64,000 nt of DNA from Vulcanimicrobiota bacterium (lineage in GTDB: Bacteria > Vulcanimicrobiota > Vulcanimicrobiia > Vulcanimicrobiales > Vulcanimicrobiaceae): the NCBI GenBank assembly GCA_963757945.1, contig CAVWTN010000002.1, positions 458,262 to 522,261 on the forward strand, read 5' to 3'. How positions within the stretch are numbered: the first letter of the stretch is position 1; each line of letters starts with the position of its first letter. The notes beneath the pieces were generated by a model. The model did not search any database. It was not told where the DNA came from and worked only from the letters and a program-made list of their open reading frames with translations. Positions 27,551-57,760 of this stretch are shown in pieces. A program made the translations under genes and the position numbers.

Positions 27551-27952
27551 TCAGCCTGAGCTTGCCGAAGGGGTCGAAGGGTCTGCACCGATGTCGAGGG
27601 TGATTCGGCCGCTTCCGTTGCAGGTGCAGCAGGCGAGGCCGCTGCCGGTGGCGCGAGCGATTCCGGAGCCTCGGCAGTTCGGGCAGGCTTGGGTTCGCTT
27701 CGGCACGCTGTGAACGCCGCGTCCGCCGCAGGCGCTGCAGGTCAAGCGCTTTTGCGGCTGCACGGCGGTCCCGCGGCACTCACCGCAGCGCACGAATGGT
27801 GCGCGCACGAGAATCATGCCCTCGCCGTGGCAGATCTCGCAGCGCGAGAGCGGGGAAAGGACCCCGAATGGATCCTTTCCCGTCCCGCGGCAGAACGCGC
27901 ACGCGACCTCATGGTACGCGGAGTTCGGGGTCCGGTTAGGCTGGATTGCCAC
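27551..27952 (-). CDS. DnaJ-type zinc-finger protein (six CxxCxGxG motifs), gas-vesicle-cluster associated, paralog 1
   Basis: 133 aa with repeated CxxC(x)GxG motifs ([48 protein letters not shown]). Paralog of 29608..29985. Confidence 0.6.
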   Translation of the reverse strand: MAIQPNRTPNSAYHEVACAFCRGTGKDPFGVLSPLSRCEICHGEGMILVRAPFVRCGECRGTAVQPQKRLTCSACGGRGVHSVPKRTQACPNCRGSGIARATGSGLACCTCNGSGRITLDIGADPSTPSASSG

Positions 27953-27964
27953 GCACGACCTCCA

Positions 27965-28636
27965 CTACGCGAGTCGAACTTGTTGCGTTGCGCTATCCGC
28001 CACGAGGTAGGTCAGCTTCTCCAACTTCTCGACTTGGTCGAAGAGCGAGAGAGCCTCGTGGTAATGCCCCTCGTTTTCGAAGACGTGCCCGAGTTCAAGG
28101 AGCCGATCGAACGCCTCGCGCCCCTCGATGCTGCCGGGATAGCGCCGCAGGAGCCGCGTGTATCCGTCGATCGCGGTGTGGATCAGCCCTTGTTCGTCCC
28201 AGGCTTGCGCTGCGCGAAGCAAGGCCACTCGGCCCGATGCCGCCGCGGCCAACTTCTGCAACGTGTGCAGGAACGAGGAATGACGTTCCGCCAGCGCCGT
28301 GCGAATTTCATCGTCCGACGCATAGACGCTGAAGGTCCCCGCGGGGAGCAACGTAAGGCGCCGCTGTAACGCGTCGACGACCCGGCCGTGATCGAACGTT
28401 ATCCGCCCGAGCCACGCGTCATCCTGGGCCAGCGTGCGCACGCGCTCCTGCGAAAATTCGTCGAGCGGAACGGCGCTGACGAGTGCGGCCAACTCGCCAT
28501 ACTCGATCGCGGTGAGCGGCGCCGATCCGTTGACGCCGAACGTGTCATCGGGCAGGCGGCTCTGGGCATCGGTCTGCTTCGCGATCCCGTAAAGGTACCA
28601 CCCGTGGTCCGGGGGCAAGCGGTGTTTCGTCATCAC
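27965..28636 (-). CDS. GvpL/GvpF-family N-terminal domain fused to a TPR-like C-terminal region
   Basis: N-terminal ~135 aa aligns with the gvpL at 31578..32423 (GHAWYLYGIAK…YGELAALVSAVPLDEF…FSVYASDD). The C-terminus diverges into TPR-like helices (AWDEQGLIHTAIDGYTRLLRRYPGS…GHYHEALSLFDQV). Confidence 0.65.
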   Translation of the reverse strand: MMTKHRLPPDHGWYLYGIAKQTDAQSRLPDDTFGVNGSAPLTAIEYGELAALVSAVPLDEFSQERVRTLAQDDAWLGRITFDHGRVVDALQRRLTLLPAGTFSVYASDDEIRTALAERHSSFLHTLQKLAAAASGRVALLRAAQAWDEQGLIHTAIDGYTRLLRRYPGSIEGREAFDRLLELGHVFENEGHYHEALSLFDQVEKLEKLTYLVADSATQQVRLA

Positions 28637-29031
28637 CGGCTCCCTCCGCGTGCGACGCCGGCTCGCCTGCGCGTGTAGCTGCTCCAGATGCGCGCCGTCT
28701 CGCTGCGTCGGCCGTGGAGGCCGCCGAGCAGACCGCGAACCTGCGCCCGGTTCTGTGCCGTTTCTGCCTCGAGCAGCGTTCGCTGGCGCTGTGCCGTTGC
28801 CGCAAGCTCGCGGCCGAAACCCGCGAGCAGCGTGGCGACCGCCCGGCTACGGACGGTCACGTCCTCTCTGAGCGCCTCTCGCAGCGAGGCATCCTCGCGC
28901 AGGCGCTCGCGCCCCAGCAGCTCGAGCTTTTGCGCGATCGCCGCCCGTCTGGCTGCAATCTCTAGCGAGCGTTCATCGTGCGCCTGCTCCAACCGATCGG
29001 TCAGCGCGCGCACGTCCGCGACTATTGCCAT
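28633..29031 (-). CDS. predicted coiled-coil gas-vesicle-associated protein ('GvpX' paralog 1, family not recognised)
   Basis: 132 aa, helical and Arg/Glu/Ala-rich. The first ~100 aa are paralogous to 37420..38013 (MAIVADVRALTDRLEQ…). ATG at 29031; the ORF's upstream extension is junk. Immediately downstream of gvpA1. Confidence 0.5.
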   Translation of the reverse strand: MAIVADVRALTDRLEQAHDERSLEIAARRAAIAQKLELLGRERLREDASLREALREDVTVRSRAVATLLAGFGRELAATAQRQRTLLEAETAQNRAQVRGLLGGLHGRRSETARIWSSYTRRRAGVARGGSR

Positions 29032-29168
29032 GTCGATCTCCCGAATCATTGAAGAAAAACAGTGCGAGGGGGCGCCGGCGTCTTTGCCGCCGATCGCTAC
29101 GCACGACCGGCATGCAAGCCCCGGCGCCCTTCGCTCGAGCTCGATCGACGAGCTCTTTGCCGCTCGTG

Positions 29169-29607: not shown

Positions 29608-29985
29608 TTACGAAGCCGAACCGCTATGCAACGTCACTCTGCCGCTGCCGGTACAGGTGGAACACGACAGATCGATCTCGCTTTCCGGATCGACGCCCGT
29701 ACCTTTGCAAACCGGGCACGCTTGGTTGTTCTTCGAGACGCTCTGCACGCCGCGCCCTCCGCACGCACTGCACGTCAGACGCTTGTGCGGCTGCGCGCCG
29801 GTACCATGGCATTCGCCGCAGCGCACGAACGGCACGTGCACGATGTTCTTGCCGACGCCCTGGCACGTCTCGCAGCGCGAAAGGTCGGAAAGGAGCCCGA
29901 ACGGATCCTTACCCGTACCGCTACAGAATGCGCATTCGACGGCCTGTTCGCCTGGTTTCGGAACTGGATTAGGCATTGGCTCCAA
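29608..29985 (-). CDS. DnaJ-type zinc-finger protein (CxxCxGxG repeats), paralog 2
   Basis: 125 aa ([48 protein letters not shown]). About 50% identical to 27551..27952. Overlaps the gvpJ stop. Confidence 0.6.
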
Positions 29986-32673: not shown

Positions 32674-33477
32674 CTAGCTCTCCTTTTCCCAGGCGAGATC
32701 GACGAAATCGAACGGCGGCAGAGGCCCGACGTACTTCAGAATCAGCCGTTCGGCATTCCGCTCGGCGATCGCGTTGACGGCCGCGTCGAAGCGCGCTTCG
32801 CTTGCTTTCTCCACGAGAAACGCCGCGTTGACGATCATCATGTCCGTGAGCAGGGCGTTCGTCTTCATCTCCACGCACAGCGGTGCAAGCTCGCTCTCGA
32901 TCTCCTCGGCGTCGCGCGTGCGCAGCAGGGCCATGGCCTGCTCCACCAATTGCCCGAGCCGGATCTGCTCGAAGTGGCCCGACCCCGATACCATCTCGTC
33001 ACGCAACGAGCGGATGTCGTCCCGCGCGGCCACGATCTCGGCGAACACGCGCTCCCGTTTCCAAAGCACCTTGAGCCCGAGCTCGACTCGCCCGCGGACA
33101 TGCGCCAAGATCGCGAGCAGCTCGTCGCGCCGCGCTTCAAGAACCTGCTCGCCGACACGCGCGTCGCTCGCGGAGATCAATCCGAATTGCGCGGGGATCA
33201 CCTCGCTGAACGTGAGGATCTCTTCGAGAACGCGCTGATGCGTCAGGAGGTTCTCGCGGCTAACGTCGTAGCGAGCTGCCGGAGAGTCGCTGACGATCGC
33301 CGCGAGCTCGCCGGCCCGGACGGCGCGCACCGCGTCGCCGCGCCCGCCGACCGCGGCCGCGGCGAACGCACCGCGCCCTTCGAGCGCGGCTGCGGGAACG
33401 ATGCCGTAGACATAAACGCCGGCCGCGCCCGCGGACGTTCCCGCCTCGCTCGCGGCGAGCTTCTCGTCACTCACCAT
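32674..33477 (-). CDS. gvpF: gas vesicle protein GvpF
   Basis: 267 aa. GVYVYGIVPAAA…LAAIVSDSP… is GvpF-family. Start at ATG 33477. Confidence 0.8.
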   Translation of the reverse strand: MVSDEKLAASEAGTSAGAAGVYVYGIVPAAALEGRGAFAAAAVGGRGDAVRAVRAGELAAIVSDSPAARYDVSRENLLTHQRVLEEILTFSEVIPAQFGLISASDARVGEQVLEARRDELLAILAHVRGRVELGLKVLWKRERVFAEIVAARDDIRSLRDEMVSGSGHFEQIRLGQLVEQAMALLRTRDAEEIESELAPLCVEMKTNALLTDMMIVNAAFLVEKASEARFDAAVNAIAERNAERLILKYVGPLPPFDFVDLAWEKES

Positions 33478-35659
33478 GGGCCGCCTCTTCCGCCTGGAGG
33501 GCCGCGACGTGCGCTTCGCGCGCCTGCACGAACGCGTTCTCGAAGTGACGCCGCTCGATGACGAACGGCGTGAACGCCGCCTGGGGTTCGCGCTCGATCG
33601 ATTCGCGGATCGCGAGCATCGCCGCACGCCGGCAAAGCCCCTCGAGATCCGCGCCGACGAGGCCCTCGGTGCTCGCTGCGATGCTCTTGAGGTCCACGTC
33701 TGCACTCAACTGCCGGCCGCGCGTGTGCACGCCGAGGATCGACAGGCGCGCAGCCCGGTCCGGGGCGTGCAACGGGAGAATCACGTCGAAGCGCCCGGCG
33801 CGCAACAGCGCGGGATCGATCATGTCCGGGCGATTGGTCGCGCCGAGAATGACGACGCCGCGCAATTCCTCGATGCCGTCGAGTTCGGCGAGGAACTGCC
33901 CCACGACACGTTCCGCAACGTGCCCCCCGCCGCTCCCGTCGCCGCGGCGCGGCACGAGCGCGTCGATCTCGTCGAAGAAGACCATGCACGGCGCGGCTTG
34001 CCTGGCCTTGTGGAAGACTTCGCGGATGCCTTTCTCCGACTCGCCGACCCACTTCGAGATCAGCGCGGGCCCCTTGACCGAGATGAAATTGATGCCGCTC
34101 TCCGCCGCGGCCGCCCTCGCCACGAGCGTCTTTCCCGTTCCCGGCGGCCCGGTCAGGAGCAACCCTTTCGGTGGATTCACCTTGGCAAACGCAAAGCGGT
34201 CGGCATACGCGAGCGGCCAGGCGACCATCTCACGAATGACTTCCTTCACCTCGTCGAGCCCGCCGACGTCGTCCCACTTCACGTCCGGCAGTTCGGTGAA
34301 GACCTCGCGAATGGCCGAGGGCTCCGTCTCCGTGAGCGCATCCGTGAAGTTCCGCATCGAGATTTCGAGCTTGAGCAGCTCCTCGTAGGGAAGCTGCGGG
34401 TTCTTGAAATCGATCGTCGGGAGAGCGTTTCGCAAGCAGCTCATCGCGGCTTCGCGGCACACCCCGGCGAGATCGGCGCCGACGAAGCCATGCGTGATCG
34501 CCGCCAGCTTCTCGAGGTCCACATCCTTCGCGAGCGGCATGCCGCGCGTGTGAATCTGCAAGATCTCCAGACGCCCCACCTTGTCGGGGACGAGGACCGA
34601 GATTTCGCGATCGAAGCGCCCCGGCCGGCGCAGCGCCGGGTCGATGCTATCCGGAATGTTCGTCGCGCCGATGACGACGACGTGCCCGCGGGACTCGAGG
34701 CCGTCCATCAGGGTCAGGAGCTGCGCGACCACGCGCTTCTCGACTTCCCCTTGGACCGCTTCGCGCTTGGGCGCGATCGCGTCGATCTCGTCGATGAAGA
34801 CGATGCTCGGCGCGTGGTTCTGCGCCTCATCGAAGAGCTTGCGCAGATTTGCTTCCGACTCGCCGTAGAACTTGTGGATGATCTCCGGACCGTTGACGTG
34901 CACGAAGTGCGCGGAGGTTTCGGCTGCGACCGCTCGCGCGATCAGCGTCTTGCCGCACCCGGGCGGCCCGTAGAGCAAAACTCCCTTGGGCGGCTCGATG
35001 CCCAGACGCGCGAAGACCTCCGGGTAGCGCATCGGCAACTCGATCATCTCGCGAATCCGCGCGATCTCTCTCCCCAGGCCACCCACGTCCTCGTAGGACA
35101 CTCCCGGCGCGCGGCCTCCCAGGGTGGCATCTCCGGCGATGCGCACGACGGTGGCTCGATCGACGTAGACGGGACCGGACGGGCTCGTGTCCTTGACGAT
35201 GAAATCGACCGCCCGCGAACCGAACAGCGCGACGCGCACGCGATCGCCCACCACGAGCGGCACGTTCTCGAGCAGCGTGCCGATGTAGCGCGAATCTTGC
35301 GCGCCGAGCGCCTTGGCGGTGACGACCGGCGTGAGCGCGAGACTCGCCGCGCTGTGGTTGCCCGCCTTCTTGAGTTGCACGCTATCGTCGAGCGCCGCCT
35401 GCGCGTTCTCCCGGATGATCCCGTCGATCTGGACCAGACCCTTGCCGCGCTCGCCGGGGAACGCCGGCATGATCCGCGCCGTGGTGTTGCGTTTGCCTGC
35501 GATCTCCACGATGTCGCCGATCGCGCAACCGAGACGCTCGATATCCGCCGGATCGACGCGCGCGATCGCCCGGCCGACGTCTTTCGGAAGCGCCTCCGCA
35601 ACGCGCAGCGCGAGCGCCGCCCGCTCGCCTACCGCGCCGCTTGCTCCGGGTTGACTCAT
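33467..35659 (-). CDS. CDC48/VAT-like double-ring AAA+ ATPase (N-domain + D1 + D2) embedded in the gvp operon
   Basis: 730 aa. CDC48-type N-domain, two Walker A sites (GPPGCGKT, GPPGTGKT), two Walker B sites (IVFIDEID, MVFFDEID), and a second-region-of-homology with Arg fingers. Confidence 0.85.
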   Translation of the reverse strand: MSQPGASGAVGERAALALRVAEALPKDVGRAIARVDPADIERLGCAIGDIVEIAGKRNTTARIMPAFPGERGKGLVQIDGIIRENAQAALDDSVQLKKAGNHSAASLALTPVVTAKALGAQDSRYIGTLLENVPLVVGDRVRVALFGSRAVDFIVKDTSPSGPVYVDRATVVRIAGDATLGGRAPGVSYEDVGGLGREIARIREMIELPMRYPEVFARLGIEPPKGVLLYGPPGCGKTLIARAVAAETSAHFVHVNGPEIIHKFYGESEANLRKLFDEAQNHAPSIVFIDEIDAIAPKREAVQGEVEKRVVAQLLTLMDGLESRGHVVVIGATNIPDSIDPALRRPGRFDREISVLVPDKVGRLEILQIHTRGMPLAKDVDLEKLAAITHGFVGADLAGVCREAAMSCLRNALPTIDFKNPQLPYEELLKLEISMRNFTDALTETEPSAIREVFTELPDVKWDDVGGLDEVKEVIREMVAWPLAYADRFAFAKVNPPKGLLLTGPPGTGKTLVARAAAAESGINFISVKGPALISKWVGESEKGIREVFHKARQAAPCMVFFDEIDALVPRRGDGSGGGHVAERVVGQFLAELDGIEELRGVVILGATNRPDMIDPALLRAGRFDVILPLHAPDRAARLSILGVHTRGRQLSADVDLKSIAASTEGLVGADLEGLCRRAAMLAIRESIEREPQAAFTPFVIERRHFENAFVQAREAHVAALQAEEAAHGE

Positions 35660-36159: not shown

Positions 36160-36459
36160 CTAGTACTCCAACGTCAGCGCATGGCGGTCACTCGCGGCAG
36201 GCGGGGCTTCGATGCCGCCGGCGATCGGGCGCGCGATCGGCCGTGATTCGAGGTCGGCGATCTGCCCGTCGACCTCGCGCAAACGCGCCTCGACGGTTTG
36301 CTGTCTTTTCCGCGCGAGCTCGACTTCGCGCACGAGCCGCCGGCGTTCGCCCGCCAGCCGCTGGAGTTGCAATGCACGGCTCACTTCGCTGCGCAACCCG
36401 ATCGACGGGGGCAGCCCGCGAAACGACCGCACGTCGTGCATGGTGCTAGGTTGCCCCAT
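36160..36459 (-). CDS. small predicted coiled-coil protein in the gvp operon (unknown)
   Basis: 99-aa ORF tightly packed between gvpN (2-nt gap) and the Hsp20 gene, with RBS GGAG. Helical Arg/Glu-rich composition. It could be spurious in this high-GC DNA. Confidence 0.4.
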   Translation of the reverse strand: MGQPSTMHDVRSFRGLPPSIGLRSEVSRALQLQRLAGERRRLVREVELARKRQQTVEARLREVDGQIADLESRPIARPIAGGIEAPPAASDRHALTLEY

Positions 36460-36461
36460 GG

Positions 36462-37391
36462 TTACTTCCGCCTTTTCGGACTGCCGGTTTCCCGGATGCG
36501 CCGCCGCGACTTTTCAGATCGATCGGAGCCGCCGCTGACGAGCACATCAGCGCACGTCTGCTCGAACGCCGGCTCTCCGGGAACCGCGCGTCCACCGGAG
36601 ATCGACAAGACCTTGGCGATCATGATGGAGCGGCGCAGCGTGGACCCTACGTGGCCGGACTCATCCCTCCAGTGATGCACGACGTCGACGATCCGTTCGG
36701 CATCCTCGAGGGGAACGCCGGACTTCGCTCGAGTGATCTCGATCTCCGTATCGCGATCGAAGCCGCTCATGTCGATCGTGATCATCCGGTCGAGCAGTGC
36801 ATCCTGCGCGCCGTGCACGCCCACGTACTCGTCGGGATTCGACGTGAAGATCGCGGAGAACGCGGGGTGAACCTTCAGATACTGCACGCCGTTCCTGCTC
36901 GTGGGCAACATGAGCAGCTTCTCTTCCAACACGGCGAGCAGGACGTTGTTCGCCTCCGCGCGCGAGCGCGAGAACTCGTCGTAAAGCAGCGTCAGCCCTT
37001 CGCGGCAGGCGACCGTCAAACGATTGTCGACCCACTGTTGCGTCACGTCCTCCTCGGTCTTGAGGACCGAGTGGACGAAGTTGTCGACGACCCTGCGGCG
37101 GCGATAGCCGGATCGCCCGCCGACAAGGTCCGATGTGCCGAACTCGTCGTCACCGCACAGCAACGCCAGCGGCCGGCCCAGGTGATGCGCGACGTGCAGC
37201 GCCAAGGTCGTTTTGCCCGAGCCGGACGGTCCGCGGAAATGCACCGGATAGCCGGCCCGGATATACGTGAGGGCCCGTGCGGTCAGGGCCCGGATGAAGT
37301 CGGTCTCAACGAAATCCGCGCGTGGCCGGCTCGTGATGACCGAACTCCCTCCGACCGCAGGCGCGCTACCGTTCAACGTGACGCTCGCCAA
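36462..37391 (-). CDS. gvpN: gas vesicle protein GvpN (MoxR-like AAA+ ATPase)
   Basis: Walker A HFRGPSGSGKTTLA, Walker B LLYDEFSR. TTG start at 37391 preceded by AGGAGG at 5-nt spacing. Confidence 0.85.
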   Translation of the reverse strand: MASVTLNGSAPAVGGSSVITSRPRADFVETDFIRALTARALTYIRAGYPVHFRGPSGSGKTTLALHVAHHLGRPLALLCGDDEFGTSDLVGGRSGYRRRRVVDNFVHSVLKTEEDVTQQWVDNRLTVACREGLTLLYDEFSRSRAEANNVLLAVLEEKLLMLPTSRNGVQYLKVHPAFSAIFTSNPDEYVGVHGAQDALLDRMITIDMSGFDRDTEIEITRAKSGVPLEDAERIVDVVHHWRDESGHVGSTLRRSIMIAKVLSISGGRAVPGEPAFEQTCADVLVSGGSDRSEKSRRRIRETGSPKRRK

Positions 37392-37419: not shown

Positions 37420-38013
37420 TCAAGTTGCAAAGTAAATTTCGCGAACGTCGTCCTTACGGGCGCGGTTCTGCTCGATGAGTCCATCGATCGCATGACCGAC
37501 TCCCGCGCGCGATGCGTGGAAGTGACGCTCGATGTCGTGGATCTTCACGCCGTTTGGATGGCCGGCGAGGAACGTGAAGACCTTGTCCTGCAGAGCGGTT
37601 GAATGATGCTGGACGCTTGGTTTGGGGCCATCTTGCGTCACCGCTCTGAAGGCGTAGTAATTGCCCCAGATCCCGGCCGTCTCCACGCGATTGACGTGGA
37701 AGGCGTCAAGGAGCCGGCTGACCTGTGCCCGGTTCTCCGCCGCGTCGGCCTTGAGCTGCGCGTTCTGCTTCTTCGCCGTCGCAGCAAGCTCCCGATCGAA
37801 ACCGGCAAGCTGATCGGCGACCGACCGGCTACGGGCGACGACCTCGGTATGGAGCGCCGCTCGCAGCTCCGTCTGTTCTTGAGTCCGCTCGCGTTGGAAG
37901 CGCGAAAGCTTCTGCGAAATCGCCTGTCGTCTCGCCGCGATCTCTTGGAACCGCTCTTCGTGCGATTGCTCCAACCGATCCGTCAGTGCGCGCACGTCTG
38001 CAACTATTGCCAT
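37420..38013 (-). CDS. predicted coiled-coil gas-vesicle-associated protein ('GvpX' paralog 2) with extra C-terminal winged-helix-like domain
   Basis: 198 aa. The N-terminal ~110 aa are paralogous to 28633..29031 (MAIVADVRALTDRLEQSHEER…). C-terminal ~70 aa extension (…VFTFLAGHPNGVKIHDIERHFHASRAGVGHAIDGLIEQN…). RBS GGGGGAGA. Confidence 0.5.
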   Translation of the reverse strand: MAIVADVRALTDRLEQSHEERFQEIAARRQAISQKLSRFQRERTQEQTELRAALHTEVVARSRSVADQLAGFDRELAATAKKQNAQLKADAAENRAQVSRLLDAFHVNRVETAGIWGNYYAFRAVTQDGPKPSVQHHSTALQDKVFTFLAGHPNGVKIHDIERHFHASRAGVGHAIDGLIEQNRARKDDVREIYFAT

Positions 38014-38151
38014 CTGGATCTCCCCCGCTTGTTGCGGCGTTGCGAGAGGGGCGCCGGCGGCCTTCACGCTGCTCTCTGGGCGCGAGCAGCGTGTAGACCC
38101 CAGCGCCCTCCCTCAAGCTCGATATAGTCGAGCCTATCTCTACCGCTCGCG

Positions 38152-57499: not shown

Positions 57500-57586
57500 G
57501 TGGTGCGCGAGACTGGACTCGAACCAGCACGCCCTTGCGGGCGCTAGCCCCTCAAGCTAGTGCGTCTACCAATTCCGCCACTCGCG
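57500..57586 (-). tRNA. tRNA-Leu (anticodon GAG), CCA encoded
   Basis: Minus-strand sequence GCGCGAGTGGCGGAATTGGTAGACGCACTAGCTTGAGGGGCTAGCGCCCGCAAGGGCGTGCTGGTTCGAGTCCAGTCTCGCGCACCA folds as a class-II tRNA with a long variable arm and anticodon loop TTGAGGG. Confidence 0.85.
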
Positions 57587-57760
57587 CACGGGGGCCCAAA
57601 GCTTGGGCGCGGGAAAGCGCCAAAGCGATTAACCCGCGTATGGTATCGTATCGGCCGACGCCGTGCAAGACACGCCGCGGGGTATCCCGCACGGGGCAGC
57701 TATCCCCGGCGACGGGCGTGATTGACAGGCTGCGGCGGGGGGTGGTACCGTCGGGAGCGT

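Follow-up and report, generated by a model that had tools for sequence, protein, structure and literature searches.

Two GvpC-like paralogs, one with a C-terminal winged helix, in the gas-vesicle cluster of a Vulcanimicrobiota bacterium

GvpC is a helical protein that straps the exterior of gas vesicles and tunes their mechanical strength, and it is the main handle for engineering these vesicles as acoustic reporters; in the operons of cyanobacteria, haloarchaea, and Serratia its gene typically lies between gvpA and gvpN. Here we analyze two genes, X1 and X2, each of which follows a copy of gvpA in a 64,000-nucleotide (nt) stretch of DNA from a Vulcanimicrobiota bacterium (contig CAVWTN010000002.1, positions 458,262 to 522,261); this whole stretch is called the window, and coordinates are counted from its first letter. 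A preliminary description of the same DNA had called the products "GvpX." They are probably two isoforms of a divergent, minimal GvpC, that is, of an outer-surface gas-vesicle protein, and would form an unrecognized subtype of it.

The closest described systems differ from X in instructive ways. The binding face of GvpC comprises six residues, Leu4, Phe11, Leu12, Arg19, Leu30, and Phe33 (Huber et al. 2023, PMC9994262), and one GvpC repeat corresponds to four GvpA subunits, whose acidic α2 helix it contacts (Huber et al., PMC9994262; Dutka et al., PMC10185304). Like GvpC of Anabaena (Dolichospermum) flos-aquae (P09413 type; PF01304, TIGR02641), X is encoded after gvpA and before gvpN, is predicted to be all α-helical, has tandem 33-residue repeats with conserved residues on one face, keeps Leu30, Phe33, and in part Leu4 in register, and begins with an N-terminal motif of the same type. 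Unlike the Anabaena protein, which has five repeats, X has three, of alternating types A and B (a 66-residue super-repeat), and it carries Leu15 and Arg22/23 in place of Phe11, Leu12, and Arg19; its helical part is basic and rich in Arg and Ala instead of Gln; it reaches neither curated model; and X2 ends in a winged helix, which is missing from the Anabaena protein.

The full X2 architecture does occur in GvpCs of Leptolyngbyaceae and Oculatellaceae, among them P0060 from Egbenema bharatensis and P0049 from Trichocoleus desertorum, both named GvpC by NCBI. Their helical regions match the X-family profile, but these proteins are longer (260 to 450 amino acids [aa]), have 5 to 7 repeats and long Pro/Ala-rich linkers, pass TIGR02641, which X does not, and are only ∼20 to 30% identical to X2. 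GvpC of Halobacterium salinarum resembles X2 in design: helical repeats are followed by a linker and a compact, globular C-terminal domain (PMC10903477), but the repeats are 32 to 40 aa long, the C-terminal domain carries a zinc-finger motif in place of a winged helix, and the protein is acidic. That domain binds GvpN, GvpO, GvpF/H/I/L, and itself (PMC9372576), and this interaction hub serves as our working analogy for the X2 winged helix. Lastly, X2 residues ∼141 to 197 share their fold with Zα, the MarR/IclR winged helix-turn-helix (wHTH) proteins, and the C-terminal domain of RPA32 (RPA32C). The X2 module differs from these in showing 11 to 25% identity, in lacking a family-level hidden Markov model (HMM) match at threshold, and in not being basic; unlike them, it is fused to what appears to be a structural organelle protein and not to a ligand-binding or dimerization domain.

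A paralogous gene pair in the gvpC position

Both X open reading frames (ORFs) lie on the minus strand (Table 1): translation of the same coordinates on the plus strand gives stop-containing nonsense, whereas the minus strand gives exactly the peptides quoted in the preliminary description, which had placed both ORFs correctly without naming a strand. Its proposal of a paralog pair downstream of each gvpA likewise holds. X1 and X2 share 78 identities over 132 residues (59%; BLASTP E 3e-46), far beyond chance, and each ORF starts 137 to 138 nt downstream of its own gvpA copy; alignment of the two copies at the DNA level shows that the duplication spans the gvpA leader, gvpA, the intergenic region, and X. 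A Shine-Dalgarno sequence, GGGAGAU, is conserved between the copies ∼7 nt before each ATG. Because all aligned homologs begin with M(A/G)(I/L)(V/I)AD, we take the ATGs at 29031 and 38013 to be the true starts.

The position of both genes is that of gvpC: X2 lies between gvpA2 and gvpN, and X1 directly follows gvpA1. The order gvpA–X–gvpN is also found in loci L001, L002, and L006–L008 and in every long-form relative described below.

Both proteins evolve under constraint. Comparison of X1 with its ortholog P0005 gave a ratio of nonsynonymous to synonymous substitution rates (dN/dS) of 0.18, indicating purifying selection, and the helical part of X2 gave 0.30 to 0.40 against P0002 and P0003. 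The ∼70 additional C-terminal residues of X2 are kept in relatives, and the module they contain is the most constrained part of the protein (dN/dS 0.07 to 0.12), under strong purifying selection.

Helical repeats and a distant relationship to GvpC

The helical, Arg/Glu-rich composition pointed out in the preliminary description is borne out by AlphaFold2 (AF2), which predicts X2 residues 2 to 126 as a single helix with a predicted local distance difference test score (pLDDT) of 80 to 95. Self-similarity is highest at a lag of 33 residues in X1 (z 3.5), in X2 (z 4.3), and in most relatives (z up to 14); some relatives have periods of 40 or 51 residues (33+7 and 33+18). The repeats of X line up with the consensus published for Anabaena, YKELQETSQQFLSATAQARIAQAEKQAQELLAF; in X2 they read VRALTDRLEQSHEERFQEIAARRQAISQKLSRF (residues 7 to 39), QRERTQEQTELRAALHTEVVARSRSVADQLAGF (40 to 72), and DRELAATAKKQNAQLKADAAENRAQVSRLLDAF (73 to 105), with Leu30 and Phe33 present in all three and Leu4 in two. 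Beyond the repeats, W116 of X2 is invariant throughout the family, including cyanobacterial GvpC (…VWG). One relative, P0002, equals X plus exactly two repeats, that is, one A+B double unit of 66 residues.

The periodicity of conservation is strongest at 98° per residue (p≈0.012 versus permutations), which corresponds to 11/3, or 3.67, residues per turn, so that 33 residues make nine turns. Such a periodicity produces a straight conserved stripe, the pattern anticipated for a helix that rests on a periodic surface. X is basic over its helical region (isoelectric point [pI] 9.6 to 11.5), and the GvpA encoded in the window keeps the acidic α2 segment with both Glu residues implicated in GvpC binding.

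Sequence searches connected X to GvpC in steps. Scans of X1 and X2 against Pfam and NCBIfam yielded no family, the sole signals being sub-threshold wHTH matches on the X2 C terminus; GvpO was considered as an identity and rejected, as neither database gave a PF05800/GvpO match at E≤10. With X2 as the query, a word-indexed search across 5.8 billion protein clusters returned five relatives, all in a gvpA–X–gvpN context, a result that seemed to favor novelty until profile searches reached further. An exhaustive HMMER search with a profile of the helical region found 19 proteins, mostly of 260 to 420 aa, most of which combine several matched stretches with C-terminal ∼60 residues of the X2 type. 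Scanning genome contigs with the X alignment produced no locus, the back-translated patterns being too specific; a scan based on GvpN similarity did recover the relevant loci. The closest GvpNs (∼65% identity) are encoded in Chloroflexota metagenome-assembled genomes (MAGs), as are the closest GvpC-like relatives, and gvp clusters may have been transferred horizontally. In the Chloroflexota loci, the gap between gvpA and gvpN encodes proteins of 315 to 451 aa with obvious 33-residue repeats, an X-like N terminus (MSRLAEMRNLTE…), and an X2-type C terminus (…FSFLADHPDGLRLVDLE…LIEQNKARKD…LYFAT).

A profile of this broader family found 49 proteins, several of them named GvpC by NCBI or UniRef, or "GvpC-like" by JGI; 7 of the 10 that we tested pass TIGR02641 (19.5 to 31.9 bits; cutoff, 18.8). 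The TIGR02641-positive cyanobacterial proteins share the order of elements seen in X2: N-terminal motif, repeats, (I/V)W motif, linker, and winged helix. Since the C terminus could otherwise carry a match, we restricted hhalign comparisons to the helical regions. X aligned with the noncyanobacterial long forms at a probability of 98.8% (P 4e-17); the long forms aligned with TIGR02641-positive cyanobacterial GvpC at 97.6% (P 5e-12) over 209 collinear columns; and X aligned directly with TIGR02641-positive GvpC at 77% (P 2e-5), N terminus to N terminus. The long forms also aligned with Synechococcales-type GvpC, which has no winged helix, at 95.9% (P 6e-9). Reversed-sequence controls gave 0.7 to 9.8% for the first three comparisons and 0.1 to 0.2% for the sets without a winged helix. 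The sequence comparisons thus indicate a relationship between X and GvpC that is real but distant and transitive, depending on intermediates because direct matches to the sets without a winged helix are weak.

These results qualify the claim in the preliminary description that X matches no Gvp family and is novel. The first part stands for Pfam and NCBIfam; novelty does not, given the repeats, the genomic slot, and the profile links to GvpC. A homology search assigning X to GvpC had been named there as the outcome that would speak against novelty, and the searches do make that assignment, only by way of distant, transitive homology. A GvpC-like role in the shell, also suggested there, is the best-supported function.

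Several observations weigh against identifying X as GvpC. Even at E≤10, neither X1 nor X2 matches PF01304 or TIGR02641. Of the six residues of the published binding face, Phe11, Leu12, and Arg19 are out of register in X, and column 33 of X1 is Phe in one of three repeats and Leu in the other two. The hydrophobic moment alone is not significant. On its own, X (a five-sequence profile) reaches 3 to 9% in hhalign against the cyanobacterial GvpC sets without a winged helix, and profile matches between helical repeat proteins can easily be spurious, a concern that the reversed controls lessen but do not eliminate. The X subfamily is known from sequence and predicted structure alone, and the role proposed for its winged helix is drawn solely by analogy with a nonhomologous archaeal domain. 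As to the first point, only 1 of 10 slot proteins (9 of the 10 cyanobacterial) passes PF01304, namely, that of the Nostocales locus L032; the curated models are narrow, so the failure of X to reach them is weak evidence against membership in GvpC.

Other cyanobacterial slot proteins behave similarly. Those of Pseudanabaena (L033 and L035-L040) and of Synechococcales/Thermostichus (L015-L018) show 33-residue periodicity and fail PF01304, which indicates that the curated models miss much cyanobacterial GvpC too; they end in another conserved C-terminal motif (…DPSDILNTLLQMAEG / …DPADILTILRRMV…).

If X is a GvpC, each molecule would be a long, amphipathic, basic α-helix of three 33-residue repeats lying along a GvpA rib, and a stripe formed by Leu30, Phe33, Ile/Val26, Arg2, and Arg22/23 of each repeat would dock on the exposed acidic α2 helix of GvpA. 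Since one repeat spans four GvpA subunits, each X molecule would cover ∼12. So docked, X would stiffen the shell against collapse. The winged helix of X2, on its short linker, would project from the vesicle surface, and X1 would be a duplicate that lost the winged helix and acts as a plain strap.

It is also conceivable, if improbable, that X has no kinship with GvpC and serves as a helical scaffold or chaperone of the phasin, GvpO, or apolipoprotein kind, acting transiently in assembly, for example by keeping GvpA soluble, without being a stable shell component, and that its likeness to GvpC is convergent. The missing match to curated GvpC models, sub-threshold apolipoprotein matches in relatives, the partial conservation of the published binding motif, and the many chaperone-like genes of the cluster (Hsp20/GvpH, CDC48, and DnaJ-type zinc fingers) would all suit such a protein. 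Convergence, however, does not readily account for collinear profile matches to curated-model-positive GvpC far above the reversed controls, nor for a domain order shared in full, down to the terminal (I/V)W motif and winged helix. Moreover, the 33-residue period fits four GvpA subunits (PMC9994262), and a GvpO-like identity lacks any GvpO signal at E≤10.

The winged helix of X2 and other C-terminal ends

The last ∼70 residues of X2 had been described as winged-helix-like, and structure prediction agrees. An earlier AF2 model of full-length X2, built with 7 sequences, had low confidence at the C terminus (pLDDT 47 to 79); with an alignment of 27 sequences, residues 126 to 197 were predicted with a pLDDT of 84.7 overall and >90 in the core, in the topology α1-β1-α2-α3-β2-β3. 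Foldseek matched this module in the PDB to Zα, MarR, IclR, TtgV, and RPA32C (template modeling [TM] score, 0.65 to 0.76; root mean square deviation, 1.1 to 2 Å). A module HMM built without any cyanobacterial sequence found the C termini of slot proteins in Chloroflexota, Poribacteria, Omnitrophica, and three cyanobacterial loci, as well as all Leptolyngbya-type GvpCs (E 1e-8 to 4e-13). Literature searches found no paper on GvpC together with a winged helix and nothing relevant on GvpC with Chloroflexi.

Going by the haloarchaeal analogy, the module most likely mediates docking between proteins, with other GvpC molecules and assembly factors such as the adjacent GvpN as candidate partners. Across 12 family members it is near neutral to acidic (net charge, −3 to +1; pI, 4.8 to 8.6); its wing contains basic residues, and the Arg at the start of α3 is invariant. 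We give DNA binding less weight because of this charge, which, as computed from sequence, argues against classical DNA binding.

Binding to DNA is central to a different, very improbable explanation, in which X2 would be a regulator of gvp transcription with a winged-helix DNA-binding domain and a coiled-coil dimerization arm, and X1 a truncated antiregulator or decoy. The fold is indeed that of the MarR, IclR, and Zα DNA binders; weak Pfam wHTH matches occur across the family (MarR_2, E 0.005; HTH_24, E 3e-4); and gas-vesicle clusters elsewhere have dedicated regulators. Yet the charge and pI of the module are atypical of a DNA-binding wHTH, and a HisKA_3 kinase and a NarL-type regulator are already encoded directly upstream of gvpA in every locus. 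The helix, too, departs from a heptad coiled coil in its strict period of 33 residues and its homology to GvpC. Among relatives, the number of repeats varies from 3 to >8, with the winged-helix module constant where it occurs, and X1, P0022, and P0024 do without it altogether.

That the X ORFs are chance reading frames, long shadow ORFs being common in high-GC DNA (108 ORFs of ≥50 aa in 14 kb), is refuted by the paralog identity at E 3e-46, orthologs in at least four other contigs with conserved synteny, dN/dS values of 0.07 to 0.41 among comparisons, the conserved Shine-Dalgarno sequence, and confident structure predictions, and the chance of it is practically nil.

Some relatives carry other ends. 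In place of the winged helix, P0024 (locus L086, 1008-1724) and P0022 (L087, 1316-1759) have Lys/Ala/Pro-rich basic tails like that of histone H1; the last 45 residues of P0024 have a net charge of +19 and a pI of 12. Both loci also encode a second family member between gvpA and gvpN (220 aa in L086 and 208 aa in L087), making a tandem paralog pair. With these tandem paralogs and the variants without a winged helix, isoform pairs seem to be a recurring theme. The protein in the gvpA–gvpN slot of L011 (2974-4170), from a "Candidatus Hatepunaea" MAG, shows a strong repeat of 51 residues (z 17) and ends not in a winged helix but in a helix-hairpin-helix/DUF4332 domain (PF14229, E 3e-7; HHH_5, E 8e-6).

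Comparison of these swapped ends, namely, the winged helix (X2, Chloroflexota-type, and Leptolyngbya-type proteins), the H1-like tail (P0024), and the helix-hairpin-helix/DUF4332 domain (L011), suggests a broader idea that we regard as doubtful: GvpC-type proteins of many bacterial lineages could carry at their C terminus a swappable adaptor that tethers vesicles to some other cell structure. Two of the three end variants are classical nucleic-acid-binding modules, which raises the possibility of GvpC anchoring vesicles to the nucleoid; the phasin PhaF has been reported to anchor polyhydroxyalkanoate granules there. Such anchoring, if it occurs, would serve vesicle positioning or segregation, and the ratio of X1 (without adaptor) to X2 (with adaptor) would set that of free to tethered straps.

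The surrounding gvp cluster and what the locus implies

A complete gas-vesicle cluster occupies ∼27.5 to ∼40 kb of the window on the minus strand (Table 1). In the order of transcription, it starts with genes for a HisKA_3 kinase and a NarL-type response regulator, followed by gvpA2, X2, and gvpN; after gvpN come a 99-aa ORF, Hsp20/GvpH, a CDC48-type double AAA+ protein, three GvpF/L paralogs, a weak GvpG-like ORF (19.7 bits, short of the curated cutoff of 85), a small GvpA-like protein, a GvpK-like ORF (the PF05121 match was seen in the near-identical contig L003), and GvpJ. The cluster ends with a DnaJ-type zinc-finger ORF, gvpA1, X1, a fusion of the GvpF/L N-terminal domain to TPRs, and a second zinc-finger ORF.

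Table 1. Coordinates and supporting evidence for features of the window
Feature	Coordinates	Strand	Evidence or remarks
X1, GvpC-like, 132 aa	28633..29031	-	Translation; 6-residue N-cap, three 33-residue repeats, C-cap (…ETARIWSSY), basic tail; no winged helix
X1 repeats 1–3 (aa 7–39, 40–72, 73–105)	28717..29013	-	Register of published Anabaena GvpC consensus
X2, GvpC-like with C-terminal winged helix, 197 aa	37420..38013	-	Translation
X2 repeats 1–3 (aa 7–39, 40–72, 73–105)	37699..37995	-	Column 30, L36/L69/L102; column 33, F39/F72/F105
X2 helix C-cap (aa 106–126, H..R.ETA.IW..Y)	37636..37698	-	
X2 winged-helix module (aa ∼141–197, after linker aa 127–140)	37423..37593	-	AF2, Foldseek
gvpA copy 1, 76 aa	29169..29399	-	PF00741, 61.1 bits
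gvpA copy 2, 76 aa	38152..38382	-	PF00741, ∼61 bits; ∼93% nucleotide identity to copy 1, including ∼70-nt leader
gvpN (AAA+), directly downstream of X2	36462..37391	-	TIGR02640, 332.7 bits (cutoff, 266.8); PF07728
gvpA1–X1 intercistronic hairpin, long, GC-rich, then U-run	29032..29168	-	Minimum free energy (MFE) −71 kcal/mol, z −4.6
gvpA2–X2 intercistronic equivalent hairpin, without U-run	38014..38151	-	MFE −79.5 kcal/mol, z −6.3
GvpF/L N-terminal half + TPR fusion	27965..28636	-	PF06386, E 7e-19, profile positions 1–112 only
DnaJ-type CXXCXGXG zinc-finger ORFs	27551..27952 and 29608..29985	-	Flank gvpA1–X1–GvpF/L-TPR unit
CDC48/p97-type double-AAA+ ATPase with CDC48_N, after Hsp20/GvpH	33467..35659	-	
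99-aa ORF directly after gvpN	36160..36459	-	No family match
tRNA	57504..57587	-	Sole Rfam gathering-threshold match in the 64-kb window

The intercistronic regions between gvpA and X share an outer stem, GGGCGC(C/U)GG…CCGGCGCCC, that is conserved between the two hairpins; the inner stem sequences differ yet still pair. The hairpins may set the gvpA:gvpC ratio, acting as attenuators or through mRNA stability. Folding z-scores are the sole support for these hairpins, and a simple terminator scan of the cluster found 7 terminators versus 7.9 expected in shuffled sequence, that is, no excess.

The GvpF/L–TPR fusion gene also follows the X1 orthologs in L004 and L005, and in the window its start is overlapped by the X1 stop, which suggests translational coupling. 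Small CXXCXGXG zinc-finger ORFs, which fall outside the classical set of Gvp proteins, recur within gvp clusters (for example, L011, 4746-5069, and L086, 1794-2006). The CDC48/p97-type ATPase is kept in the distantly related cluster L087 (4549-6681), which adds an ArsA/ParA-like ATPase. The position of the 99-aa ORF is conserved as well, with ORFs of 94 to 109 aa in L002 and L087; its C-terminal end, …LTLEY, resembles the …FHFEY end of a 105-aa ORF in the Nostocales locus L032, and it may be GvpV-like.

Because the curated models are narrow, the wider GvpC superfamily (Chloroflexota-type, Poribacteria, Omnitrophica, and many filamentous cyanobacteria) is mostly annotated as "hypothetical." What is new here is modest: a minimal three-repeat form with alternating A/B repeats and a C-terminal winged helix, a domain on which the literature we searched contained no paper. 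The locus offers a natural minimal three-repeat GvpC of 132 aa, and its two genes form a natural pair that differs in the presence of the conserved, tightly constrained winged-helix end domain. Should the winged helix not be a docking site of the kind proposed, the outcome would simply be the reannotation of two hypothetical proteins as GvpC; if GvpN, other GvpC molecules, or a cell structure do dock there, the domain would inform two questions, namely, the placement of GvpC on the shell and the arrangement of vesicles inside the cell.

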